From the NCBI RefSeq assembly GCF_024700885.2, contig NZ_CP117016.1: DNA of 64,000 nt. One strand, written 5' to 3'. The first letter of the stretch is position 1, and every line of letters begins with the position of its first letter. This DNA comes from Escherichia coli. GTDB taxonomy: Bacteria; Pseudomonadota; Gammaproteobacteria; Enterobacterales; Enterobacteriaceae. The notes below the pieces were generated by a model, which was given only the letters and a program-made list of their open reading frames with translations, did no database searches and had not been told where the DNA came from. This document shows, piece after piece, positions 2,013-61,700 of this stretch. Both the position numbers and the translations under genes were made by a program.

Positions 2013-2831
2013 ATGGCTCGTCTGGCAGCATTTGATATGGATGGCACTTTATTGATGCCTGACCATCATTTAGGTGAGAAAACCCTCTCTACTTTGGCGC
2101 GACTGCGTGAACGCGACATTACCCTCACTTTTGCCACGGGGCGTCATGCGCTGGAGATGCAGCATATTCTCGGGGCGCTATCGCTGGATGCATATTTGAT
2201 TACCGGCAACGGAACGCGCGTGCATTCTCTGGAAGGTGAACTTTTACATCGTGATGATTTACCTGCGGATGTCGTGGAGCTGGTGCTGTATCAGCAATGG
2301 GATACCCGAGCCAGCATGCATATCTTCAATGACGACGGTTGGTTTACCGGGAAAGAGATCCCTGCGTTGTTGCAGGCATTTGTCTATAGCGGTTTTCGTT
2401 ATCAGATAATCGATGTCAAAAAAATGCCACTCGGCAGCGTCACCAAGATCTGCTTCTGTGGCGATCACGACGATCTTACACGCTTGCAGATCCAGCTATA
2501 CGAAGCATTAGGCGAGCGTGCACATTTGTGTTTTTCCGCCACGGATTGCCTCGAAGTGCTGCCGGTGGGCTGCAATAAAGGCGCTGCATTGACGGTGCTG
2601 ACCCAACATTTAGGTTTATCGTTGCGCGATTGCATGGCCTTTGGTGATGCGATGAACGATCGCGAAATGTTAGGCAGCGTCGGTAGCGGATTTATTATGG
2701 GCAATGCGATGCCGCAATTGCGCGCGGAGCTCCCGCATTTACCGGTGATTGGACATTGCCGAAATCAGGCTGTCTCTCACTATTTGACGCACTGGCTGGA
2801 CTATCCACATCTACCTTATTCCCCCGAATAA
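2013..2831 (+). CDS. cof: HAD-family HMP-PP phosphatase Cof
   Basis: Track ORF 2001..2831; HAD motif [10 protein letters not shown] near N-terminus; start set at ATG 2013 ([14 protein letters not shown], 272 aa) rather than the upstream GTG. Confidence 0.9.
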
Positions 2832-2983
2832 CGAGATCCCTTCCAGCACCGGGCAATTGCCCGGTTTTTTTTGCGTTGAATTTGTCATTTTGTGCCGTGG
2901 TGTTTAAACCGCACAGAATAAATTGTCGCGATTTCACCTTTAAAATAGAATTAAAAGAGAAAAAAATTCTCCGTGGAAGGGCT

Positions 2984-3442
2984 ATGTTAGATAAAATTGA
3001 CCGTAAGCTGCTGGCCTTACTACAGCAGGATTGCACCCTCTCTTTGCAGGCACTGGCTGAAGCCGTTAATCTGACAACTACCCCCTGCTGGAAGCGTCTG
3101 AAACGGCTGGAGGACGACGGTATTCTTATCGGCAAAGTCGCCCTGCTGGATCCGGAAAAAATAGGCCTCGGCCTGACTGCCTTTGTGCTGATAAAAACGC
3201 AACATCACAGCAGCGAATGGTATTGCCGCTTTGTCACGGTGGTTACCGAAATGCCAGAAGTGCTGGGGTTCTGGCGCATGGCCGGTGAATACGATTATCT
3301 GATGCGCGTCCAGGTTGCCGACATGAAACGCTACGACGAGTTTTATAAGCGTCTGGTAAACAGCGTGCCGGGGCTGTCGGACGTCACTTCCAGCTTCGCG
3401 ATGGAACAGATTAAATACACCACTTCTTTACCCATCGAATAA
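2984..3442 (+). CDS. ybaO: Lrp/AsnC-family transcriptional regulator YbaO (DecR)
   Basis: Within track ORF 2756..3442; start at internal ATG 2984 gives the 152-aa product [16 protein letters not shown]... with HTH and RAM domain features; the upstream track extension overlaps the cof 3' end and is rejected. Confidence 0.88.
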
Positions 3443-3471
3443 ATATCCAGAATCAGGTCAGGACACAACGC

Positions 3472-7018
<3,547 letters not shown>

Positions 7019-14519: not shown

Positions 14520-14690
14520 TACTGACCTCCGGTTGCTGAAAATGCGGCAACACAGTAAGACGAAAAGTCAGTGAAGAGAACGTTCCCATTACATCTGTGT
14601 GATAAAGATCACATAGGGTATGTCTTCATGGCGAAAAAGTATAAAATTCTTAATAAACAGCCGGTTATAGCTCCGAAAGCGAATTATTTA

Positions 14691-15309: not shown

Positions 15310-15812
15310 AACGCGTCCCCTTCTTAGTGGTTGAACTAACGGACACCTTTCGGGATGGAAAAAACTTACTGACCTGGACTTGCCCTCTCGTTTGTTAGCT
15401 TAACTATAAGCCACTCTTTGCAGGTTTTCATCGCATTATTACGAAAAATTACAATTAGGAAGGAAGCGGGACAGGACTTACTTTTTCATACTAGCACTAA
15501 CCCGCAGCAGGTAAAAGCAGTTTGCTCGAACTGTTCATAACATTTCAGGATTATCGCCAGATGAAATTGGTAACACTAATACCAGGATTGCTCTGAATAT
15601 GACGTAATAACCGAGGAATGAATAAAGAATTACCGCAAATAATTAAGAATAGCCTCTAAATGATTATGGATTATTAAATCTATTAGCGCTACTTAATATA
15701 AATTAACTAACAATCAGTATTTTTTATGAATTTTAAACGTGTTTAATACTGGTTTTCGTATGAGATCCTGAGTTGGTGGTTCAATGACTTCTTAATGTTC
15801 GTCGGTTATGCA

Positions 15813-45769: not shown

Positions 45770-46702
45770 ATGTTAGATGCAAACAAATTACAGCAGGCAG
45801 TGGATCAGGCTTACACCCAATTTCACTCACTTAACGGCGGACAAAATGCCGACTACATTCCCTTTCTGGCGAATGTACCTGGTCAACTGGCAGCAGTGGC
45901 TATTGTGACCTGCGATGGCAACATCTATCGCGCGGGTGATAGTGATTACCGCTTTGCGCTGGAATCCATCTCGAAAGTCTGTACGTTAGCCCTTGCGTTA
46001 GAAGATGTCGGCCCGCAGGCGGTACAGGACAAAGTTGGCGCTGACCCGACCGGATTGCCCTTTAACTCAGTTATCGCCTTAGAGTTGCATGGCGGCAAAC
46101 CGCTGTCGCCACTGGTAAATGCTGGCGCTATTGCCACCACCAGCCTGATTAACGCTGAAAATGCCGAACAACGCTGGCAGCGAATTTTACATATCCAACA
46201 ACAACTGGCTGGTGAGCAGGTAGCGCTCTCTGACGAAGTCAACCAGTCGGAACAAACAACCAACTTCCATAACCGGGCCATTGCCTGGCTGCTGTACTCC
46301 GCCGGATATCTCTATTGTGATGCAATGGAAGCCTGTGACGTGTACACCCGTCAGTGCTCCACGCTCATCAATACTGTTGAACTGGCAACGCTTGGCGCGA
46401 CGCTGGCGGCGGGTGGTGTGAATCCGCTGACGCATAAACGCGTTCTTCAGGCCGACAACGTGCCGTACATTCTGGCTGAAATGATGATGGAAGGGCTGTA
46501 TGGTCGCTCCGGTGACTGGGCGTATCGCGTTGGTTTACCGGGCAAAAGCGGTGTAGGTGGCGGTATTCTGGCGGTCGTCCCTGGCGTGATGGGAATTGCC
46601 GCGTTCTCACCACCGCTGGACGAAGAAGGCAACAGTGTTCGCGGTCAAAAAATGGTGGCATCGGTCGCTAAGCAACTCGGCTATAACGTGTTTAAGGGCT
46701 GA
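45770..46702 (+). CDS. glsA: Glutaminase 1 (GlsA/YbaS)
   Basis: 310-aa ORF, serine-dependent glutaminase family. Confidence 0.94.
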   Translation: MLDANKLQQAVDQAYTQFHSLNGGQNADYIPFLANVPGQLAAVAIVTCDGNIYRAGDSDYRFALESISKVCTLALALEDVGPQAVQDKVGADPTGLPFNSVIALELHGGKPLSPLVNAGAIATTSLINAENAEQRWQRILHIQQQLAGEQVALSDEVNQSEQTTNFHNRAIAWLLYSAGYLYCDAMEACDVYTRQCSTLINTVELATLGATLAAGGVNPLTHKRVLQADNVPYILAEMMMEGLYGRSGDWAYRVGLPGKSGVGGGILAVVPGVMGIAAFSPPLDEEGNSVRGQKMVASVAKQLGYNVFKG

Positions 46703-46704
46703 TC

Positions 46705-47997
46705 ATGATGAACACGGAAGGTAATAACGATAACAAACCCCTCGGTCTATGGAACGTCGTTTCCATCGGTATTGGGGCAATGGTGGGGGCGGGGATCTTC
46801 GCGCTGCTGGGGCAGGCTGCGTTGCTAATGGAAGCCTCGACCTGGGTCGCCTTTGCTTTTGGCGGTATTGTGGCGATGTTTTCCGGTTATGCCTATGCGC
46901 GCCTGGGGGCGAGCTATCCCAGCAATGGCGGTATTATCGACTTCTTTCGTCGCGGATTAGGCAACGGCGTCTTTTCGCTGGCACTCTCGTTATTGTACCT
47001 GTTGACGCTGGCGGTGAGCATCGCCATGGTCGCCCGTGCTTTTGGCGCTTATGCCGTGCAGTTTTTGCATGAAGGCAGCCAGGAGGAGCACCTTATATTG
47101 CTCTACGCGTTGGGGATCATTGCGGTGATGACGCTTTTCAACTCCTTAAGCAACCATGCGGTAGGGCGGCTGGAAGTGATCCTCGTCGGCATTAAAATGA
47201 TGATCCTGTTATTGCTGATTATTGCCGGTGTCTGGTCGCTGCAACCGGCGCATATTTCCGTCTCTGCGCCCCCCAGCTCCGGTGCGTTCTTCTCCTGTAT
47301 CGGGATAACCTTCCTTGCCTATGCGGGCTTTGGCATGATGGCGAACGCGGCGGATAAAGTGAAAGATCCGCAGGTCATTATGCCACGGGCGTTTCTGGTG
47401 GCGATTGGCGTTACCACGTTGCTTTATATCTCGCTGGCGCTGGTTTTGCTTAGCGATGTATCGGCATTAGAGTTAGAAAAATATGCCGATACCGCCGTAG
47501 CGCAGGCAGCTTCTCCGCTGCTCGGGCATGTGGGTTATGTGATCGTCGTCATCGGCGCTTTACTGGCGACGGCTTCAGCCATCAACGCGAACCTGTTCGC
47601 CGTGTTTAACATCATGGACAACATGGGCAGCGAACGCGAACTGCCAAAGCTAATGAATAAATCCCTGTGGCGGCAGAGTACCTGGGGCAACATCATTGTC
47701 GTGGTGCTGATTATGCTGATGACGGCGGCGCTGAATTTAGGCTCACTCGCCAGCGTTGCCAGCGCCACCTTTTTGATCTGCTATCTGGCGGTGTTTGTGG
47801 TGGCGATCCGCCTGCGTCATGATATTCACGCCTCGTTGCCGATTCTTATCGTTGGTACGTTGGTGATGTTGTTGGTGATCGTTGGCTTTATCTACAGCCT
47901 GTGGTCCCAGGGCAGCCGTGCGTTGATATGGATTATTGGTGCAATCTTACTCAGCCTTATTGTGGCAATGGTCATGAAGCGCAATAAAACCGTATAA
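46705..47997 (+). CDS. ybaT: APC-family amino acid transporter YbaT
   Basis: 430-aa 12-TM ORF starting 3 bp after glsA (operon). Confidence 0.92.
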   Translation: MMNTEGNNDNKPLGLWNVVSIGIGAMVGAGIFALLGQAALLMEASTWVAFAFGGIVAMFSGYAYARLGASYPSNGGIIDFFRRGLGNGVFSLALSLLYLLTLAVSIAMVARAFGAYAVQFLHEGSQEEHLILLYALGIIAVMTLFNSLSNHAVGRLEVILVGIKMMILLLLIIAGVWSLQPAHISVSAPPSSGAFFSCIGITFLAYAGFGMMANAADKVKDPQVIMPRAFLVAIGVTTLLYISLALVLLSDVSALELEKYADTAVAQAASPLLGHVGYVIVVIGALLATASAINANLFAVFNIMDNMGSERELPKLMNKSLWRQSTWGNIIVVVLIMLMTAALNLGSLASVASATFLICYLAVFVVAIRLRHDIHASLPILIVGTLVMLLVIVGFIYSLWSQGSRALIWIIGAILLSLIVAMVMKRNKTV

Positions 47998-48008
47998 CAC
48001 CTCTCTGC

Positions 48009-48041
48009 GCGCAGTACAGCCTGTACTGCGCCTTTGTCTTT
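48009..48041 (+). terminator. Rho-independent terminator of glsA-ybaT; last recognisable core-backbone feature before the island
   Basis: Hairpin GCGCAGTACA-GCC-TGTACTGCGC followed by CTTTGTCTTT. Confidence 0.7.
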
Positions 48042-48334
48042 AATTCAAATTACCTTTCTTATTCCTTTAATAAATAAGTCACAAAAAAATGATATATACG
48101 CGATAAATCTGTGATGCTAATCACTTATTACCGTGGATTATTCTTAATGTGTATGATGGTAATCTAAAAGTCGTAGTGTATTCTAAATAAATAACGTATA
48201 AGCTTTTTAGCTGCATTTCTTTGCCCATATCAAAGATCGACAAAAGAGATGCACAAGTTATTACCCTTCTTAATAAAATGAGACTGGTTATAAAAACCAG
48301 TTAAAATAATGACCTGGAAGGAAGTGACTTATCT

Positions 48335-49690
48335 ATGGCGCGATTCCAGTTTAAAAGCCGTAAAAATAATGGGTTTATTTTTTTAATAAGTTTTATGGTG
48401 ATGGGAGAGGCTACAATTGCTGCACCGCTGCCACAATGGGCGAACGCCCCAGCGGTAACGCCAGTTGCCCGATTATCTTTACAGGAAAGTATATTACGCG
48501 CCTTTGCGCGAAATCCCGACGTCACTCAACAGGCGGCGCAGATAGGTATTGGCGAAGCGCAAATTGATGAAGCCAAAAGTGCCTGGTATCCGCACGTTGG
48601 ATTAACCGGCAATGCGGGACCGTCCCGACAAACGGACTCCAGTGGCAGGCTTGATAACAACGTTTCGTATGGCATAACCCTGACACAGCTGGTGTATGAC
48701 TTTGGTAAAACTAACAACGATATCAAACTGCAAACTGCCGCCCGTGACAGCTACCGCTTTAAATTGATGGCAACATTAACCGATGTTGCAGAGAAAACGG
48801 CGACTGCCTATATGGAAGTCAGTCGTTATCAGGCTTTGTGCGATGCGGCTCAACGCAATATTCACTCGCTGGAAAACGTCTACAACATGGCGGCATTGCG
48901 CGCTAATGCTGGCCTGAACTCATCGTCGGATGAATTACAAGCCCAGACGCGCATTGCCGGAATGCGCTCAACGCTGGAGCAATATCAGGCGCAGATGGCA
49001 AGCGCCAAAGCGCAACTGGCGGTGCTCACTGGCGTACAGCCGGAGGCGATAGCCGCGCCACCTGCTGAATTAGCCGAGCAGCCGGTATCGCTGAAAAATA
49101 TTGATTACCAGTCCATCCCGCTGGTGCTGGCGGCAGAAAACTTACGCCAGTCAGCACAGTACGGCGTGGAAAAAACGAAAGCGCAATACTGGCCAACGCT
49201 CAGTATTCAGGGGGGCAAAACGCGCTACCAGACCAGTGACCGCTCGTATTGGGACGATCAGTTACAACTGAACGTTAACGCGCCGCTGTATCAGGGCGGC
49301 GCAGTTTCAGCCCAGGTGCAACAGGCTGAAGGGCAACAAAAAATCTCTGCCTCGCAGGTCGAACAGGCAAAACTGGATGTGCTGCAACGAGCGTCTGTGG
49401 CATATGCCAACTGGACAGGCGCACGGGGTCGCGAAGAAGCCGGTTTAGCACAATCCGAAAGTGCGCACAAAACGCGAGATGTGTACCAAAATGAATATAA
49501 ATTGGGCAAACGCAGTCTGAATGATCTATTAACCGTCGAGCAAGATGTCTTTCAGGCGCAATCGGCTGAAATAAATGCCAATTATGATGGCTGGGTCGCC
49601 GCCGTAAATTATGCCGCTGCGGTGAATAACCTTATTCCATTAGCGGGAATTAAACAGGGCTTATACAACGACTTACCCGACTTGAAATAA
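48335..49690 (+). CDS. TolC-family outer membrane factor of a type I secretion system
   Basis: 451-aa ORF with signal peptide (KSRKNNGFIFLISFMVMGEATIA/APLP) and Gln/Ala-rich coiled-coil repeats typical of TolC-family channels; not part of the K-12 backbone at this position. Confidence 0.8.
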   Translation: MARFQFKSRKNNGFIFLISFMVMGEATIAAPLPQWANAPAVTPVARLSLQESILRAFARNPDVTQQAAQIGIGEAQIDEAKSAWYPHVGLTGNAGPSRQTDSSGRLDNNVSYGITLTQLVYDFGKTNNDIKLQTAARDSYRFKLMATLTDVAEKTATAYMEVSRYQALCDAAQRNIHSLENVYNMAALRANAGLNSSSDELQAQTRIAGMRSTLEQYQAQMASAKAQLAVLTGVQPEAIAAPPAELAEQPVSLKNIDYQSIPLVLAAENLRQSAQYGVEKTKAQYWPTLSIQGGKTRYQTSDRSYWDDQLQLNVNAPLYQGGAVSAQVQQAEGQQKISASQVEQAKLDVLQRASVAYANWTGARGREEAGLAQSESAHKTRDVYQNEYKLGKRSLNDLLTVEQDVFQAQSAEINANYDGWVAAVNYAAAVNNLIPLAGIKQGLYNDLPDLK

Positions 49691-49798
49691 TCCTGCCATT
49701 ATTAATATCAGGTATGCCTCGTTGTTAAGTGATTACCTTTGTCTTATTTAGATAAATGGACTCGCTAAGGATATGCGCCATTTATCAGGAATGCCATT

Positions 49799-52700
49799 AT
49801 GAGCCTGATTATTGATGTTATTTCGCGTAAAACATCCGTCAAACAAACGCTGATTAATCCTGGCGACGTCACGGTTGTTATTTATGAGCCTTCCGTGGTG
49901 CAGGTTCATGCTCAGGCCTCTGCCGTTTCGCGTTACGTCCGTGAAGGAAATGACCTGCTGATCTATATGCAGGACGGCACGGTGATCCGTTGCAACGGTT
50001 ATTTCCTGCAAGCGGCGAATACCGCTGAACAATCGGAACTGGTGTTTGCCGATGGGCAACAGCTAACCCATGTCACCTTTGCCGATACTGCTGCGGGTGG
50101 TTTAGCCCCCGTAGAACTGACTGCCCAGACCACTGCGATTGAAAGCATTGCGCCATTTCTTGATACCGTTGCTCAGACCAGCGCCTTCCCGTGGGGTTGG
50201 CTGGCGGGGGCGGCGGTAGGTGGTGGTGCGCTTGGTGCACTGCTGGCAAGCGGTGGTGATGGCGACTCGAAAACGGAAGTGATTAATAACCCTACGCCAC
50301 CCGCTGAGCCTGGCAACGCCACACCATCATTTTTAGTTACCGATAATCAGGGCGATCAGCGCGGCATTCTCGCCACCAATGACATCACCGATGACACCAC
50401 GCCAACCTTTAGCGGCAGCGGGCAGGCGGGGGCGACTATTCAGATTAAAGACAGTAACGGCAATACTATTGCCAGTACTCAGGTAGACAACAACGGTCAC
50501 TGGAGTGTCTCGTTACCCACGCAAAGTGCAGGTGAACATACCTGGTCAGTGGTGCAAATTGTCGGCAGTACCATCACTGACGCCGGTTCGATAACGTTAA
50601 CCATCGACAATAGTCAGGCCAGCGTGCAGGTTGCCACCACCGCAGGCGATAACATTATTAACGCCAGCGAACAGGCCGCCGGGTTTACGCTTTCTGGTAC
50701 CAGTAGCCATCTGGCGCAGGGAACAGAACTCACCGTTACGCTAAACGGCAAAACCTACACCACCAGCGTAGGCGCTAACGGTGCCTGGAGCGTGCAGGTA
50801 CCGACCGCCGATGCGCAGGCGTTAGGCGAAGGGAATCAGGCAGTGCTGGTCAGCGGGAAAGACGCCACAGGCAATACGGTCACCGGCGCGCAGCTTTTAA
50901 CGGTCGATACCCAACCGCCAACGCTTGCCATCAACACTATCGCTCAGGACAACATCGTCAGTGCTGCGGAACATAACGCCGCGCTGGTACTGAGCGGCAC
51001 TTCGAATGCAGAAGCGGGGCAAACCGTAACCCTGACCGTCAACGGGAAAAGCCATTCAGTAACCGTCGGTAGCGATGGAACCTGGCAAGTGACGCTGCCT
51101 GCCACGGAGGTACAGGCACTGGCGGAGGGGAACTACGCTGTCAATGCCAGTGTCAGCGATCGGGCAGGAAACACCACCAGCAACAGCGCGAATTTCACGG
51201 TAGACACCTCAGCACCCGTGGTCAGCGTTAACACCGTGGCGGGCGACGATATTCTTAATAATGCTGAGCAGGCCGTCGCGCAGATCATCTCCGGACAAGT
51301 CAGCGGTGCTTCTCCTGGCGATACGGTAACGGTGAAATTGGGCACTCATGTCCTGACGGGCATTGTGCTGGCAGATGGCAGCTGGAATGTGGCGCTGGAC
51401 CCAGCGGTAACCCGCACGCTGGATCGCGGAGCCAATACGATTTTCGTCACCGTGACAGATACTGCAGGAAATACCGGCGCGGCGTCTCGAGCAATCACGC
51501 TGGTCGGTGTCTCTCCGTTAATCACCATTAACACCGTCTCCGGCGATGACATTATCAGTGGCGCAGAAAAAGGTGCGCCACTGACCCTTACCGGTAGCAC
51601 TCAACAGGCCGAGACAGGACAAACCGTCACAGTAACCCTGGCTGGACAGAGTTTTACTACTACCGTGCAGGCTGATGGCTCCTGGAGTCTGACGGTACCT
51701 GCCGCCGCGATGGGAAATCTGCCTGACGGCGCGGTGGCGATTACCGCTTCTGTGACGGATCTCAGCGGCAATACCGGCAACACCTCTCGCACCATTACCG
51801 TCGACAGCCAGGCCCCGGCCTTAAGCATCGATCCACTGACCGCCGATAACATCATCAACGCCACCGAAAGCGGGCAGGATCTGCAAATCACCGGCACCAC
51901 CGACGCTCAGCCAGGGCAGACGGTGACCGTTACGTTGAATGGGCAGACCTATCAGGGCGTCGTGCAGTCCGACGGCACCTGGAGCGTGACCGTTCCCGCC
52001 GCCAACGTTGGCGCACTGGCTGACGGCAACGCTACGGTCACCGCCAGCGTGAACGATGTTGCCGGTAATCCGAGCAGCGTCTCACGCGTGGCGCTGGTCG
52101 ATGCCACGCCGCCGGTGGTAACCATTAATCCGGTGGCGACCGATAACGTCATCAACACGCCGGAACACACCCAGGCGCAAATCATCAGCGGCACGGTTAC
52201 TGGCGCTCAGGCGGGCGATATCGTCACCGTGACGCTGAATAATGTGGATTACACCACGGTGGTGGATGGTTCCGGCAACTGGAGTCTGGGTGTTCCGGCT
52301 TCCGTTGTCAGCGGACTGGTGGATGGCAGTTATCCGATCAACGTGTCAGTGACTGACCGCGCCGGAAACACGGGCAGCCAGTCACTGACTGTCACGGTCA
52401 ATACCGCCGCGCCAGTAATTGGTATTAACACCATTGCTGGCGATGATGTGATAAACGCCAGCGAAAAAGGGGCTGATGTCCAGATTACCGGTACCAGCGA
52501 TCAGCCAGCCAATACCGCCATCACCGTGACGCTGAACGGGCAAAATTACACCACCACGACCGACGCCTCCGGCAACTGGAGCGTCACCGTTCCGGCATCG
52601 GCGGTAACCGCACTGGGCCAGGCCAACTACACGGTAACGGCGGCGGTGACGAGTAATATCGGCAACAGCGCCACCGCCAGCCATAACGTGCTGGTTGACA

Positions 52701-55700
52701 GCGCGCTGCCCGGCGTGACCATTAACCCGGTGGCAACCGACGATATTATTAACGCCGCCGAAGCGGGCGTCGCGCAAACCATCAGCGGGCAGGTGACTGG
52801 AGCCGCCGTTGGCGACGCGGTAACCGTTACGCTGGGTGGCAATACCTACACCACCACCGTACAGCCGGGATTAAGCTGGAGCGTGAGCATTCCGGCGGAC
52901 GCTATTCAGGCGCTGGGTAATGGCGATTTAACGGTGAGCGCCTCGGTCACCAATCAAAACGGCAACACCGGCAGCGGCACGCGGGATATCACCATCGACG
53001 CCAATCTGCCCGGTCTGCGGGTCGATACGGTGGCAGGCGATGATGTGGTCAATATCATCGAGCACGGGCAGGCGCTGGTGGTCAGCGGCAGCAGCTCGGG
53101 GCTGGCTGAAGGCACGCCGCTTACCGTTACGATTAACAATGTGGAATACACCACTGCGGTGCAGGCCGATGGTAGCTGGAGCGTGGGCGTCACGGCGGCG
53201 CAGGTTAGCGCCTGGCCTGCGGGAACAGTAACGGTTACCGTGTCCGGGGAAAGTAGCGCCGAAAATCCGGTGAGCATTACGCATCCGGTTATGGTCGATC
53301 TCACTCCGGCGGCGATCACCATCAACACCATCGCCACGGATGATGTGATTAACGCCACAGAAAAAGGCGCTGATTTAACCCTTTCCGGCACCACCACTAA
53401 CGTAGAATCCGGTCAAACCGTCACCGTCACCTTTGGCGGGAAAAATTACACTGCCAGCGTGGCGAGCGATGGTAGCTGGGCTGCCACCGTTCCCGCCGCC
53501 GATCTGGCAGCATTACCAGAGGGCAGCGCCTCCGCGCAGGCCAGCGTCAGCAATATTAACGGCAATAGCGCCTCGGCGGTGCATAACTACAGCGTCGACA
53601 GCAGTGTCCCGACCATCATTATCAATACCGTTGCCAGCGACAATATCGTCAACGCCAGCGAAGCCGATGCGGGTGTGACGGTGAGCGGCAGCACCACTGC
53701 CGAGGCAGGGCAGATTGTTACGATAACGCTCAATAGCCCGACCGTGCAGACGTATCAGGCAACGGTACAGGCCGACGGTAGCTGGAGTATTAATATTCCG
53801 GCGGCAGATCTTGAGGCATTGACCGATGGCAGCCACACCCTGACCGCCACGGTCAATGACAAAGCAGGCAACCCGGCGAGCACCACGCATAATCTGGCGG
53901 TGGATCTCACCGTTCCGGTACTCACCATCAACACCATTGCGGGCGACGATATTATTAACGCCGCCGAACACGGGCAGGCGCTGGTGATTTCCGGTTCCAG
54001 CACTGGCGGAGAAGCGGGGGATGTCGTCACCGTCACGCTAAACAGTAAAACCTACACCACGACGCTGGATGCCTCCGGCAACTGGAGCGTCGGCGTTCCG
54101 GCGGCGGATGTCACGGCGCTGGGCAGCGGCCCGCAAACTGTCACCGCCAGCATTACCGACGCGGCAGGCAATAGCGATGATGCCAGCCGCACGGTTACAG
54201 TGAATCTGACCGCGCCGACCATTGGCATTAACACCATCGCCACCGATGACGTGATTAACGCCATCGAAAAAGGCGCGGATCTGCAAATTTCCGGCACCAG
54301 TAATCAGCCAGCTGGCACCACAATTACGCTGACGCTGAACGGGCAAAATTACACTGCCACGACGGACGCCGCAGGCAACTGGAGCACCACGGTGCCAGCC
54401 TCCGCCGTCAGTGCGCTGGGCGAAGCCAGTTATACGGTGACGGCGAATGTCACCGACAGCGCGGGTAACAGTAATTCCGCCAGCCATAACGTGCAGGTGA
54501 ATACCGCACTGCCTGGCGTCACCCTTAATCCGGTGGCGAGCGACGACATTATTAACGCCGCCGAATCGGGCGTGGCGCAGACCATCAGCGGGCAGGTGAC
54601 GGGCGCGGCGGCGGGCGATACGGTTACCGTAACGCTTGGCGGGAAAACCTACACCACTACCGTGCAGGGCAATTTAAGCTGGAGCGTGGGCGTTCCGGCG
54701 GCGGATATTCAGGCCATCGGCAATGGCGACCTGACAGTTAATGCCTCGGTGACCAACGGCGTTGGTAATACCGGCAGCGGTTCGCGAGATATTACTATCG
54801 ACGCTAATTTGCCTGGCCTGCGCGTCGATACCGTGGCGGGCGATGATGTGGTCAACAGCATCGAGCACGGTCAGGCACTGGTGATAACCGGTAGCAGCAG
54901 CGGGCTGGCGGCGGGCGCGGCGCTGACGGTGGTGATCAATAACGTCACCTACGGCGCGACGGTATTAGCCGATGGTACATGGAGCCTTGGCGTTCCAGCG
55001 GCAGATGTGGGCAACTGGCCTGCGGGTACGGTGAATATCACGGTTTCAGGTGCCACTAGCGCAGGAAACCCGGTCACTATCACCCATCCGGTCACCGTCG
55101 ATCTGGCGGCGGTGGCGATCTCCATTAACACCGTTTCCGGCGACGATGTGATTAACGCCGCCGAAAAAGGGGCAGATTTAACCCTTTCCGGCAGCACTTC
55201 CGGCGTGGAAGCGGGACAAACCGTCACCGTCACCTTTGGCGGTAAAACCTACACCGCCACCGTAGCGGGCGATGGTAGCTGGACAACCACCGTACCCGCC
55301 GCCGATCTCAGCGCGTTACGCGACGGCGACGCCACGGTACAGGCCAGCGTCAGCAATATTAACGGCAACACGGCTTCGGCGACCCACGCCTACAGCGTCG
55401 ATGCCACGGCACCGACGCTTGCCATTAACACCATCGCCACTGACGATATTCTGAACGCCGCCGAGGCGGGCAATCCGCTAACCATCAGCGGCAGTAGCAC
55501 CGCCGAAGCGGGGCAGACGGTAACTGTCACGCTTAATGGCGTGACTTACACCGGCACCGTCCTGGCGGACGGGAGCTGGAGCGTCAGCGTGCCGACGGCG
55601 GATCTCAGCAATCTGACCGCCAGCCAGTACACGGTCAGCGCCTCGGTAAGCGATAAAGCGGGTAACCCGGCAACCGCCACTCATGGGCTGGCGGTGGATC

Positions 55701-58700
55701 TCACCGTTCCCGTATTAACCATCAACACCGTCTCCGGCGATGACATTATTAACGCCGCCGAACACGGGCAGGCGCTGGTAATCTCCGGTTCCAGCGCTGG
55801 CGGCGAAGCGGGCGATGTCATCACCGTTACGTTAAACAGTAAAACCTATACCACCACGCTGGACGCTTCCGGCAACTGGAGCGTCGGCGTTCCGCTGTCA
55901 GATGTCACTGCGCTGGGCAGCGGCCCGCAAACCATCACAGCTACCATTACCGACGCGGCAGGCAACAGCGATGATGCCAGCCGCACGGTCACCGTGAATC
56001 TCACCGCGCCAACCATTGGTATCAACACTATCGCCAGCGATGACGTGATTAACGCCACGGAAAAAGGCGCGGATCTGCAAATTACCGGCACCAGTAATCA
56101 ACCCGCAGGCACCACAATAACGGTGACGCTGAACGGGCAAAATTACACCGCGACGACCGATTCCTCCGGCAACTGGAGCGCCACGGTGCCTGCCTCGGCA
56201 GTTAGCGCGCTGGGTGAGGCCAATTACACGGTAACCGCCGCCGCTACTGACGCCGATGGCAACAGCGGTTCCGCCAGCCATAACGTACAGGTTAATACCG
56301 CGCTGCCTGGCGTCACCATTAACGTGGTGGCAACGGACGATATTATTAACGCTGCCGAAGCAGGGACAGATCAAACTATCAGCGGGCAGGTGACGGGGGC
56401 TACGGCAGGCGATACGGTGACCGTCACGCTCGGCGGGGCGACTTACACTGCCACGGTGCAGGCGAATTTAAGCTGGAGCGTCGATGTTCCGGCCTCCGCG
56501 CTACAGGCGTTGGGCAACGGTGAGCTGACCATTTCGGCTTCGGTAACGAACAGCGTAGGCAATACCGGTAACGGCACGCGTGAAATCACCATCGACGCGA
56601 ATCTGCCCGGTCTGCGGATTGACACCGTGGCGGGCGATGACGTGGTCAATATTATCGAGCACGGACAGGCGCTGGTGATTACCGGCAGCAGCTCCGATCT
56701 GGCAGCGGGCAGCAACGTCACGCTGACCATTAACGGGCAAACCTATGTTGCGGCGGTACTGGCGGATGGCTCATGGAGCGTCGGCGTTCCGGCGGCAGAT
56801 GTCAGCGCCTGGCCTGCGGGGACGGTCACAATTACGGCGAGCGGCAACACCACCGCCGGAAATCCGGTCAGCGTTACGCATCCGGTGACTGTCGATCTCA
56901 CTGCGGTGGCGGTCAGCATCAACGCCATTACTGCCGATGACGTGATTAACGCTGCCGAAAAAGGCGCGGCGTTAACGCTCTCTGGCAGCACTTCTGGTGT
57001 GGAGGCCGGGCAAACGGTCACCGTCACCTTTGGCGGCAAAACTTACAGCGCCACGGTGGCTGCGAATGGTTCCTGGAGCACCTCGGTTCCGGCGGCAGAT
57101 ATGGCGGCCCTGCGTGATGGCGATGCCAGCGCACAGGCCAGAGTCAGCAATGTTAACGGCAACAGCGCCACCACTACTCACGCTTACAGCGTCGATGCCA
57201 GCGCGCCAACGGTGGCCATTAACACTATTGCAGGCGACGATATTCTTAACGCCGCCGAAGCGGGTGCTGCGCTGACTATCACTGGCAGCAGCACGGCGGA
57301 AGCGGGGCAGACGGTGACCGTCACCCTCAATGGCGAAAACTATACTGGCACGGTTCAAACGGACGGTAGCTGGAGCGTCAGCGTACCGCCAGCCGACTTA
57401 AGCGCCCTGACCGCCAGCAACTACACCGTTAGTGCGGCGGTGAGCGACAAAGCCGGAAACCCGGCCTCGGTTAATCACAACCTGACGGTGGATACGTCTG
57501 TTCCGGTTGTCACCATCAACACGGTGGCGGGCGATGATGTGATCAACGCGACGGAACACGCCCAGGCGCAGATTATCAGCGGCTCCGCCACGGGTGCGGC
57601 AACCGGCAGCACCGTGACGGTGACTATCGGCAGCACCACCTTCACCACCGTGCTGGACGCCAGCGGTAACTGGAGCGTCGGCGTTCCGGCAAGCGTCGTC
57701 TCGGCGCTGGCGAACGGCACGGTGACCATTAACGCCAGCGTCACCGATGCCGCCGGAAACAGCGGCAGCGCCACGCATCAGGTGACGGTCAATACTGGCC
57801 TGCCGTCAATTACCTTTAACGCCATCAGCGGCGATAACGTCCTGAACGCCGATGAAAAAGGCCAGCCGTTGACCATTAGCGGTAGCAGTACGGGGCTGGC
57901 GACGGGCGCGCAGGTCACCGTCACGCTCAACGGTCATAACTACAGCGCCACCACCGACGCGGCGGGCAACTGGACCTTAACCGTGCCGGTGAGCGATCTG
58001 GCGGCTCTGGGTCAGGCCAACTATACCGTCAGCGCCAGTGCCACCAGTGCGGCGGGTAACACCGCCAGCAGCCAGGCGAATTTACTGGTCGATAGCGGCC
58101 TGCCGGGCGTTACCATCAACACCGTGGCGGGCGATGATATTATCAACGCCGCCGAAGCCGGGGCCGATCAAACCATCAGCGGGGTGGTGACTCGCGCCGC
58201 CGCTGGCGATACGGTCACCGTGACGCTGGGCGGCAACACTTACACAGCGCAGGTTCAGCCCGATTTAAGTTGGAGCGTCACCGTTCCGGCAGACGATTTA
58301 CAGGCGTTGGGCAATGGCGATTTGACCATTAACGCCTCGGTTACCAACGCGAATGGCAACACTGGCAGCGGCTCGCGGGATATCACCATTGATGCCAACC
58401 TGCCGGGTCTGCGCGTGGATACCGTGGCGGGCGATGATATCGTCAACAGTATCGAGCACGGGCAGGCGCTGGTGATCACCGGCGGCAGTAGCGGCCTGAA
58501 TGCAGGTGCTGTGCTGACGGTTACCATCAACAGTGTGGCGTATTCCACCACGGTACAGGCGGACGGGAGCTGGAGCGTTGGCATTCCGGCGGCAAACGTC
58601 AGCGCCTGGCCTGCGGGGCCGTTAACCGTTGAAGTTACAGGACAGAGCAGCGCCGGAAACCCAGTCAGCGTCAGCCATCCGTTCACCGTCGATTTAACGG

Positions 58701-61700
58701 CGGTGGCAATCAGCATCAACACCGTTGCCAGCGATGACGTAATTAACGCCGCCGAAAAAGGCACTGGTCTGACCCTTTCCGGCAGCACCAGCGGGATTGA
58801 AAGCGGGCAAACCGTTACCGTCACTTTTGGCGGTAAAACCTACACTGCAAGCGTCGCCGCCAACGGTAGCTGGAGTGTGAACGTTCCAGCGGCAGATCTG
58901 GCAACTCTGCCAGACGGCGCGGCGAACGTGCAGGCTAGTGTCAGCAGCGCGAGCGGTAACAGTGCCTCGGCGACCCATGCGTATAGCGTTGACGCCAGCG
59001 CACCGACGCTCACCATTAACACCATTGCCAGCGACGATATTCTTAACGCCACGGAGGCGGGAAGCCCGCTCACCATCAGCGGCACCAGCACCGCCGAAAC
59101 CGGGCAGACGGTCACCGTGACCCTTAACGGCGCAACCTACACCGGCAATGTGCAGGCGGACGGTAGCTGGAGCGTCAGCGTTCCCACTTCAGCCCTGGGC
59201 GTGCTAAGTGCAAGCAATTACACCGTCAGCGCCACGGTCAACGACAAAGCGGGCAACCCCGGCAGCGCCAGCCATAATCTGGCGGTAGACACCACCGCGC
59301 CGGTTCTCACCATTAACACCGTGGCGGGCGATGACATCATCAACGACGCCGAACACGGGCAGGCGCTGGTGATTTCTGGCACCAGCACGGGCGGGGAAGC
59401 GGGCGATGTGGTGAGCGTTGTGCTCAACGGCAAAACCTACACCACCACCCTGGATGCCTCCGGCAACTGGAGCGTTGGCGTTCCGGCGGCGGATGTTACG
59501 GCACTGGGTAGCGGCGCACAGACCATCACCGCCAGCGTCAGCGATCGGGCGGGTAACAGCGATGACGCCAGCCGCACCGTGACCGTCAGCCTCAGCGCGC
59601 CAGTGATTAGCATCAACACCATCGCGGGCGATGATGTGATCAACGCGACGGAAAAAGGATCTGATCTGGCGCTTTCCGGCACCAGCGATCAGCCTGCGGG
59701 TACGGCGATCACCGTCACCCTGAACGGACAAAACTACAGCGCCACTACCGACGCCTCCGGCAACTGGAGCGTCACCGTGCCCGCCTCGGCGGTCAGTGCG
59801 CTGGGCGAAGCCACCTACAGCGTCACGGCGAGCGTTACCAATGCTCAGGGTAACAGCAGCACCGCCAGCCATAACGTGCAGGTCAATACCGCGCTGCCGG
59901 GCGTCACCATTAATCCGGTGGCGACGGACGATATTATCAACGCTTCAGAGGCGGGCAGCGCGCAAACTATCAGCGGCCAGGTAACCGGTGCGGCGGCGGG
60001 TAGCATCGTCACCGTTGAACTGGGCGGTAAAACTTACACCGCCACCGTCCAGCCAGATTTAAGCTGGAATGTGAGCGTACCAGCCGCCGACTGGCAGGCG
60101 TTAGGTAATGGTGAGTTAACGGTTAATGCCTCGGTAACCAACGCCGTTGGCAACACCGGTAGCGGCACGCGCGATATCACCATCGACGCCAGTCTGCCTG
60201 GCCTGCGGGTGGATACCGTTGCAGGCGATGATGTGGTCAATATCATCGAACATGCTCAGGCGCAGGTGATTACTGGCACCAGCTCTGGCTTTGCGGCGGG
60301 CACGGCGCTGACGGTGGTGATAAATAACCAAACTTATGCCGCCACGGTGCTGGCGAATGGTACCTGGAGCGTCGGCGTACCGGCGGCGGATGTCAGTAAC
60401 TGGCCTGCGGGAACGCTGAACATTACCGTTAGCGGCGCGAACAGTGCCGGAACGCAAACCAGCATTACCCATCCGCTGACAGTTGATCTCAGCACTGTCG
60501 CCGTCAGCATAAACAGCATCACCAGCGATGATGTGATTAACGCCGCCGAAAAAGGCGCGGCATTAACGCTCTCCGGCAGCACGTCCGGCGTCGAAGCGGG
60601 GCAAGCCGTTACCATTACTTTTGGCGGTAAAACCTACACCACCACGGTGGCGGCAAACGGTAGCTGGAGCACCACCGTTCCGGCGGCGGATATGGCGGCC
60701 CTGCGTGACGGCGATGCCAGCGCCCAGGTGCGGGTGACTAACGTCAACGGCAACAGCGCCACGGCAACGCATGAATACAGCGTCGATAGCGCCGCGCCAA
60801 CGGTGACCATCAATACCATTGCCAGTGATAACATCATCAACGCCAGCGAAGCGGCGGCGGGCGTGACGGTATCCGGCACCAGCACGGCGGAGGCAGGGCA
60901 GACGCTGACCGTCACGCTTAATGGCACTAACTACCAGACCACGGTGCAGGCAGACGGCAGCTGGAGTTTAACGCTGCCCGCCAGCGACTTAACCGCACTT
61001 GCCAATAACGGCTACACCCTGACCGCCACGGTCAGCGATTTGGCGGGTAACCCTGGCAGCGCCAGCAAAGGTGTGACCGTCGATACCACCGCGCCCGTCA
61101 TCAGCTTTAACACCGTGGCGGGCGACGATGTGATTAACAACGTTGAACACACTCAGGCGCAGATTATCAGCGGCACCGCCTCGGGCGCGGTGGCGGGCGA
61201 CCGCCTGGTGGTGACCATCGCCGGGCAGCAGTATGTCACCAGCACCGATGCCAGCGGCAACTGGAGCGTTGGCGTGCCTGCCAGCGTGATTTCCGGCCTT
61301 GCGGACGGCACAGTGACTATCAGCGCCACTGTCACCGATAGCGCAGGCAACAGCAGCACGCAGACGCACAACGTGCAGGTGAACACGGCGGCAGTGTCGC
61401 TCTCGGTCAGCACCATCAGCGGCGATAACCTTATTAACGCCGCCGAAGCAGGCAGTGCGCTGACCCTGAGCGGCACCGGAACGAACTTTGCCGCAGGTAC
61501 AGTAGTGACCGTGTTGCTTAACGGCAAAGGCTACAGCGCTACCATTCAGAGCAACGGGAGCTGGAGCGTGAACGTGCCGGCGGCAGACGTTGCGGCGCTT
61601 GCCGATGGCACCAGCTACACGGTCAGCGCTTCCGCCCAGGACAGCGCCGGAAACAGCGCCACGGCTTCGCGCAGTGTGGCGGTGGATCTCACCGCGCCGA

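Follow-up and report, generated by a model that had tools for sequence, protein, structure and literature searches.

Downstream of ybaT, the Escherichia coli chromosome analysed here (a stretch of 64,000 nucleotides, henceforth called the window) contains a short interval of very low GC content (48042–48334) that ends at the start codon of a gene for a TolC-family outer-membrane factor (OMF). The locus raises the question of what this interval does, and of whether its composition and its absence from K-12 mark the edge of a recently acquired island. The interval is, with high confidence, the 5′ control region of the T1SS/giant adhesin operon of O-island 28 (OI-28), comprising a promoter with activator sites upstream and, probably, a structured leader. 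Since the role of the region has already been published and AT-rich promoters are ordinary, the consequence of this assignment is low; minor new points of modest weight are a conservation map, a CRP-like site that is conserved, and a predicted fold of the leader in which the ribosome-binding site is hidden. The history of the locus is treated separately below.

Composition, surroundings, and identity of the locus

The GC content of 48042–48334 is 29.4%, which is the minimum among all 293-bp segments of the 64 kb; equally low values were found in 0.02% of such segments, every one of which overlaps the interval itself. The window as a whole has 54% GC, ybaT 53.7%, the OMF gene 51.2%, and the adhesin gene 60.8%, and the single comparable AT-rich trough elsewhere in the window lies at ~15.4–15.6 kb. 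Open reading frames inside the interval are 21–40 aa long, lack ribosome-binding sites, and are unconserved as open reading frames. The initial annotation, made from the window alone, had described an AT-rich gap free of open reading frames between the ybaT terminator and the OMF start, contrasting with a GC-rich adhesin gene, and both parts of this description were borne out.

On the upstream side, ybaT (an APC-family permease and backbone gene; 46705–47997, + strand) was assigned from its open reading frame and from the RefSeq annotation of the identical strain MLI114, with its stop codon at 47995–47997. The gene is followed by an intrinsic terminator hairpin (48009–48031, + strand) with a perfect 10-bp stem and a 3-nt loop (fold energy −16.4 kcal/mol, z = −4.5), and then by CTTTGTCTTT, with the T-rich run extending to about 48041. 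This terminator is intact in Escherichia sp. E1V33, E. whittamii, and E. albertii, and destroyed in K-12. On the downstream side, the OMF gene (48335–49690, + strand; supported by its open reading frame, RefSeq, and the literature) is the ortholog of Z0608/tolC28 and the first gene of the T1SS/adhesin operon; its ATG at 48335 coincides with the RefSeq start and is preceded by the SD GGAAGGAAG at 48316–48324. The 5′ part of the giant adhesin gene (siiEA in the RefSeq annotation of MLI114, 17.2 kb) occupies 49799–64000 on the + strand and runs off the window. A second, smaller AT-rich gap (49691–49798, GC about 0.41 in 300-bp windows) separates the OMF and adhesin genes, and the adhesin mRNA level is below the OMF mRNA level in EDL933 and 042.

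The hha/tomB pair, which had been placed ~33 kb upstream of the gap and linked to it as an H-NS co-regulator, is indeed present at that distance (window ~14.7–15.3 kb). Both are ordinary backbone genes, and their link to the gap is co-location on the backbone only. A perfect CRP consensus, TGTGATAAAGATCACA, was found in the acrB-tomB-hha neighbourhood at 14598–14613, near the AT-rich trough at 15386–15624 (minimum GC 0.307).

Window positions 47700–48700 match E. coli MLI114 (stool, Mali) at 100%, and the gene order in that genome (RefSeq) is copA, glsA, ybaT, TolC-family OMF, “BapA-related adhesin SiiEA” of 17.2 kb, T1SS ABC permease/ATPase, HlyD-family adaptor, and cueR. In EHEC O157:H7 the corresponding locus is OI-28, with Z0608 (tolC28), Z0609/Z0615 (adhesin), Z0634 (hlyB28), and Z0635 (hlyD28), or ECs0540–0544 in strain Sakai. 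The operon thus named consists of tolC28, the adhesin gene (siiEA, or rtxA28/rtxB28), hlyB28, and hlyD28. The intergenic region (IGR) between ybaT and the OMF gene is 99.0% identical over 315 bp to many O157:H7 genomes, and O157 SS17 and EAEC 042 share the same layout, with the gap between ybaT and the tolC28 ortholog. As to EAEC, strain 042 carries OI-28 (L044, 34410–49001), and Boisen 2012 lists siiEA in an EAEC from Mali; Niu et al. 2025 (PMC12758282) report OI-28 in 0 of 10 EAEC.

Regulation, anatomy, and conservation of the control region

The regulatory role that the initial annotation had proposed as likely is already known and published for the 99%-identical sequence of O157:H7, by means of a lacZ fusion, ChIP-qPCR, and a box-dependent EMSA; these data stem from a strain other than that of the window. 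In brief, the 320 bp upstream of tolC28 drive transcription of a lacZ fusion in O157:H7 (Niu et al. 2025, PMC12758282), the activity is RstA-dependent and responds to Ca2+ via RstA, and binding of RstA to the tolC28 region was detected by ChIP-qPCR enrichment and by an EMSA shift dependent on the box TAATTCAAATTACC (−294 to −280; PMC12758282). An exact match to this EMSA-defined box, identical in O157 SS17, lies at 48041–48054 (+ strand), i.e., −294 to −281 when counted from the start codon at 48335. The ecs0540–0544 operon is reported to be PhoB-regulated (Yoshida et al. 2010, PubMed 20640580, as cited in later papers). Moreover, Z0608 is 55-fold RpoS-dependent in stationary phase (log2 10.8 in the wild type vs 5.0 in the rpoS mutant), and ECs0540/ECs0541 rise by 3.5–4.1 log2 on entry into stationary phase.

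Conservation along the region was determined as block identities between the window and Escherichia sp. E1V33/E. whittamii, with the four-fold degenerate sites of ybaT and the OMF gene (66–72%) as the neutral yardstick. The distal block (48032–48133), which holds the RstA box, is 62% identical and hence at or below the neutral level. It is followed by a promoter-proximal conserved block (48134–48222, + strand) with 90% identity, by an unconserved segment of 21 bp (48223–48243, + strand) with 19–33% identity between species, and by a putative conserved 5′ leader (48244–48334, + strand) with 93.5% identity between species. By this comparison the functional core would be the proximal ~200 bp (48134–48334), which appear to be under clear purifying selection across Escherichia species. 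The RstA box is unconserved in E1V33, E. whittamii, and the divergent lineage L030; given that the box lies in the 62% block, the part of the region that is unconserved outside E. coli, control by RstA may be recent or marginal. For experimenters, the conservation map directs attention to 48134–48334 rather than to the poorly conserved RstA box.

Among candidate activator sites, a CRP-like palindrome, TGTGAtgctaaTCACt, is located at 48110–48125 and matches 9 of 10 consensus bases (TGTGA-N6-TCACA). Matches of this kind number 3 in the window vs 1.9 expected and are thus not significant by count; the half-sites, though, are unchanged across four Escherichia lineages that differ in the spacer, a pattern that would fit a real binding site and induction on glucose exhaustion. 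Such a candidate site may add a carbon-source input, and its bases could instead belong to a PhoB site. Weak Pho-box-like repeats with 11-bp phasing extend over 48054–48115 (+ strand), the best at 48065–48082 with 14/18 matches and others starting at 48054 (12/18) and 48098 (13/18). The consensus scan returned 3 sites of at least 14/18 in the whole window, which is not significant by count, and a search for the strict 18-bp Pho box CTGTCATAWAWCTGTCAY with up to 3 mismatches returned none. The published BPROM elements, −35 ATGATG at 48153–48158 and −10 GTGTATTCT at 48176–48184 (+ strand), are predictions; they are identical in O157, and the pair has a poor spacer of 20 bp. A simple sigma-70 scan gave 2 matches vs 2.2 expected, one of which relies on the candidate −10 TAAAAT (48274–48279), which reads TAAAAC in O157, and this candidate was distrusted.

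The RNA of 48185–48345 folds with an MFE of −36.2 kcal/mol (z = −3.57). In the three-species RNAalifold consensus, an anti-SD segment (48256–48262 and 48265–48270) pairs with the SD region (48316–48321 and 48323–48329), and pairing in a leader hairpin at 48283–48301 is kept through G-U transitions on the + strand only. No pair of the leader helix shows a double compensatory change among the three species, because the helix sequence is invariant in them. The ribosome-binding site may be concealed within this long-range helix of the transcript leader, and the conserved leader may in that case be a switch, as far as folding predictions indicate; reading 48244–48334 as a leader would require a transcription start upstream of about 48250. 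In strain ECNB21-M121, an IS1A element is inserted in the IGR (L043, about 2769–3586; corresponding to window ~48293), where it separates the conserved promoter block from the ribosome-binding site of the OMF gene.

The alternative that survives best is that the gap is the promoter of a recently acquired island which, owing to its AT-richness, is xenogeneically silenced by H-NS together with Hha, as the initial annotation had suggested. We consider this possible but doubtful. It would agree with the GC minimum over about 300 bp, and AT-rich upstream regions being a rule in this operon family (see below), H-NS binding is plausible on composition alone; the analogous sii promoter of Salmonella SPI-4 is reported to be H-NS-repressed. 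Expression data from EAEC 042 point in the same direction at first sight (Prieto et al. 2018, PMC5861252, Table S1; RPKM from single unreplicated libraries). The OMF gene has 38.5 in the wild type, 58.7 in hha hha2, 195.8 in hns, 82.7 in hns2, and 337 in hns hns2, i.e., a 5.1-fold rise in hns and an 8.8-fold rise in hns hns2, and the adhesin gene has 22.5, 38.4, 106, 57.7, and 83, respectively. However, the backbone genes rise equally: glsA goes from 58 to 279 in hns (83 in hha hha2, 120 in hns2, 289 in hns hns2) and ybaT from 41 to 273 (71, 92, and 280, respectively), which corresponds to 4.8- to 6.9-fold, and the effect of hha hha2 on the OMF gene is only about 1.5-fold. RpoS and the Gad regulators are elevated in hns mutants. 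Given the equal rise of glsA and ybaT and the RpoS dependence of tolC28, direct silencing is inseparable in these data from indirect effects through RpoS, the Gad regulators, or read-through.

Further observations speak against silencing of a recent arrival. Z0608 is highly expressed, in an RpoS-dependent manner, in wild-type stationary phase, so the tolC28 promoter is not simply silent. A match to the H-NS motif TCGATAAATT, namely GCGATAAATC at 48100, is at chance level, with 65 such matches in the window vs 46 expected. The literature searched for H-NS ChIP in O157 and for OI-28 locus tags in hns studies contained no H-NS ChIP or binding result for the locus. Finally, the locus is not recent: three or more further Escherichia lineages have it at this site, and K-12 and E. 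albertii retain fossils of it.

That the gap encodes a product of its own, either a small RNA or a small protein, instead of control signals only, is very improbable. Strong conservation of 48244–48334, its stable predicted fold, and a terminator-like hairpin predicted on the minus strand at 48301–48283 could be read in this way. The hairpin substitutions, though, preserve G-U pairs on the + strand only, which fits an mRNA leader, and the conserved block continues straight into the SD and the ATG; an Rfam scan of 47500–50500 at E ≤ 1 gave no match, and a small protein would have to come from the short open reading frames described above, which are without an SD and unconserved.

The K-12 junction and the history of the locus

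In its ybaT-cueR interval, K-12 has no copy of the gap sequence; whether such a copy existed, which would have made the sequence backbone, had been put forward as a check of the island idea. Among 5426 complete E. coli genomes, the IGR is present in 958, always single-copy, chromosomal, and at ≥95% identity, and 4458 have the K-12 arrangement, all sharing one junction. The locus of K-12 type lacks ~22.2 kb relative to MLI114. Homology of island-negative genomes to the window ends at 48025, which sets the left breakpoint at 48025/48026, within the descending arm of the ybaT terminator. The truncated K-12 hairpin is unfolded (−7.1 kcal/mol, z = +0.83), and its T-run is lost (L001 4872–4917 compared with window 48000–48045).

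On the other side of the junction, the K-12 spacer just upstream of cueR (L001 4900–4997; also L045 301–398) can be aligned to the final 99 nt of hlyD28 and lacks one G. The intact 3′ end of hlyD28 encodes GMVATVDIRTGKKSVLDYLLKPFNKAQEALRER followed by the stop codon, and the K-12 version reads IVVAVDIRTGKK and is then out of frame. Since GMVATVDIRTGKKSVLDYLLKPFNKAQEALRER aligns to the extreme C-terminus of E. coli HlyD (PDB 8dck, 8dck_C, ending in GMAVTAEIKTGMRSVISYLLSPLEESVTESLHER), the segment in the K-12 spacer is genuine HlyD-family coding sequence rather than recruited spacer. At the same spot in K-12-type genomes, PGAP, independently of these alignments, annotates a 98-nt pseudogene (“frameshifted; missing N-terminus”) of a ‘hypothetical protein’. 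The K-12 spacer of 124 nt can thus be broken down into 28 nt of ybaT 3′ flank, 2 unassigned bases, and 94 nt of hlyD28 fossil. No mention of an hlyD28-derived fossil in this spacer was found in the literature examined.

Because the ‘empty site’ is a decayed hlyD 3′ end (98 nt) fused to half of the ybaT terminator, the K-12 state is a deletion. The initial annotation had taken the gap for the possible left boundary of the island, and the position was nearly right, as homology ends 16 bp to the left of 48042; the insertion model behind it was wrong. The proposed alignment of the K-12 ybaT-cueR interval yields neither an insertion point nor direct repeats, and shows the scar with its hlyD fossil instead. 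A repeat search within 47900–48450 and between the two island ends returned only short repeats at chance level and none at the breakpoints, a tRNA scan of 40–64 kb returned none, and no integrase or transposase is annotated among the island genes (RefSeq). That the gap is an att-like insertion junction, made of AT-rich junk left by integration and with repeats recoverable against K-12, can hardly be maintained: the absence of the sequence from K-12-type genomes and an 11-nt direct repeat (CCTTTAATAAA) at 48064–48074 and near the hlyD28 3′ end (L003 about 6288–6278) would agree with it, but the repeat lies at neither breakpoint, its right copy falls inside codons conserved in the HlyD family and is unconserved in O157 (so that it is probably due to chance), the empty site holds hlyD28 sequence together with no more than the left half of the ybaT terminator, tRNA gene, integrase, and transposase are absent, and the proximal 200 bp are under purifying selection.

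Its distribution outside E. coli shows the OI-28 locus to be old within Escherichia. The ybaT-IGR-OMF arrangement was also found in Escherichia sp. E1V33 and in E. whittamii (where the OMF gene is interrupted and the match is split into three pieces), and three or more Escherichia lineages besides E. coli have the locus at this position. In the divergent lineage L030, a deletion of 625 bp fuses window ~48201 to OMF codon ~168, and the island is mostly gone. In E. albertii, ybaT and cueR are 180 bp apart and the sequence of the ybaT hairpin is largely kept; after about 110 unrelated bases, a decayed hlyD remnant of ~55 nt follows just upstream of cueR (L039 6419–6473; L038), which reads ATGCTGAATTATCTGTTT vs GTGCTGGATTATCTGTTG in the intact gene. 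This remnant is different and more decayed, and it marks an independent deletion of the same locus. Identity at four-fold degenerate sites between the window and these Escherichia species is 0.66–0.72 in both ybaT and the OMF gene, and this equal divergence indicates that the island diverged along with the backbone.

The AT-rich gap had been regarded as typical of horizontally acquired promoter regions, and as a sign of recent acquisition this does not hold, given the locus in E1V33 and E. whittamii, the fossils in K-12 and E. albertii, and the backbone-like divergence. Low GC instead characterises the DNA ahead of operons of this family across many Enterobacterales and is not a mark of recent acquisition: in Enterobacter, Pseudocitrobacter, Budvicia, Rosenbergiella, and others, the 300 bp preceding the OMF homologue mostly have a GC content of 0.30–0.40, with outliers of up to 0.48, e.g., in Trabulsiella and in a distant Pseudomonas match. 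The adhesin genes of these homologous operons mostly have 0.57–0.63, with lower values in the low-GC Budvicia and Rosenbergiella, and the high GC of the adhesin gene indicates that the locus was foreign once. Sequence homology to the IGR itself was absent outside Escherichia in a blastn search against the upstream regions of 30 OMF homologues, and E. fergusonii, for which a sii locus is cited, was not among the matches of an OMF protein search of genome contigs. Contigs labelled Collinsella sp. and Bacillota MAGs (L004 and L033) carry an Enterobacterales locus of OI-28 type, which in L004 is 99% identical to ybaT-IGR-OMF of E. coli; these copies are probably binning contamination.

The present/absent polymorphism within E. 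coli accordingly reflects loss, not gain. The broader account is held at about even odds: that OI-28 is an old Escherichia locus and not an EHEC gain, with about 82% of E. coli including K-12 descending from a single deletion of ~22 kb, and, separately, with a leader that is possibly a switch hiding the ribosome-binding site. The patchy distribution of OI-28 would then result from loss, through one deletion shared by most E. coli, an independent one in E. albertii, and further decay by IS1, frameshifts, and partial deletions, and such a history changes how the “presence in virulent lineages” of OI-28 is to be read. Niu et al. 2025 (PMC12758282) write of acquisition and of spread by horizontal transfer, without mention of ybaT or cueR. 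In individual island-positive strains, the OMF gene of O157:H7 SS17 is frameshifted (L041), and the adhesin gene of EAEC 042 is pseudogenised by a frameshift and an internal stop.

The deletion also explains the origin of the sequence upstream of cueR in K-12. Where the island is present, the stop codon of hlyD28 and the start codon of cueR overlap (ATGA; L003 6250–6253, and likewise in EAEC 042), and RPKM values of hlyD across the five 042 strains (56/98/96/80/58) track those of cueR (58/88/84/77/58), while the upstream ABC gene does not. This co-variation and the overlap suggest an hlyD28-cueR transcript from an internal promoter. In K-12, the loss of the 3′ arm of the terminator and of its T-run means that glsA-ybaT transcription may read into cueR, and such read-through could relate to the previously reported induction by acid of ybaST together with the cue genes (PMC9628877). 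If the deletion account is true, cueR of K-12 may now receive transcription from glsA-ybaT read-through as well as input from signals formerly located within a secretion gene; in strains with the island, by contrast, cueR is the last gene of the hlyD28 transcript and overlaps hlyD28.

Variability extends to neighbouring intervals. A second strain-variable insert lies between cueR and ybbJ in MLI114 (L003 2990–5842) and encodes a YadA-like protein and three hypothetical proteins, and E. albertii has a different gene of 407 aa at this position. Outside Escherichia (E. coli and E. albertii, ≥91%), no close relatives of YbaT (glsA-ybaT, 45770–47997) were found, the next best being Edwardsiella at about 71% and Serratia at 57%; judged by this distribution, the copA-cueR interval looks like a mosaic of old acquisitions.

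Comparison with known systems

The closest known counterpart is the tolC28 region of O157:H7 (Niu et al. 2025, PMC12758282; Yoshida et al. 2010), which lies at the same site between ybaT and a TolC-family gene; the IGR is 99% identical, with the RstA box and the predicted −35/−10 elements unchanged. The two differ in the adhesin, which is one open reading frame of 17.2 kb here and two open reading frames in OI-28 of O157:H7. The K-12 ybaT-cueR spacer and the island-positive locus have in common the first 28 nt past the stop codon of ybaT, as well as cueR and its ribosome-binding site; K-12 is without all of 48026–48334 plus about 22 kb more, and its ybaT terminator is broken. A more distant parallel is siiABCDEF of Salmonella SPI-4, likewise a T1SS operon that exports a giant GC-rich adhesin with Ig repeats (SiiE, from which compare the RefSeq name SiiEA of the E. 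coli adhesin) and has an AT-rich control region ahead of it. SPI-4 is under H-NS/HilA control. The two loci differ in gene order, with the OMF gene first and hlyD last in OI-28, and in chromosomal site, and their upstream DNA is without homology.
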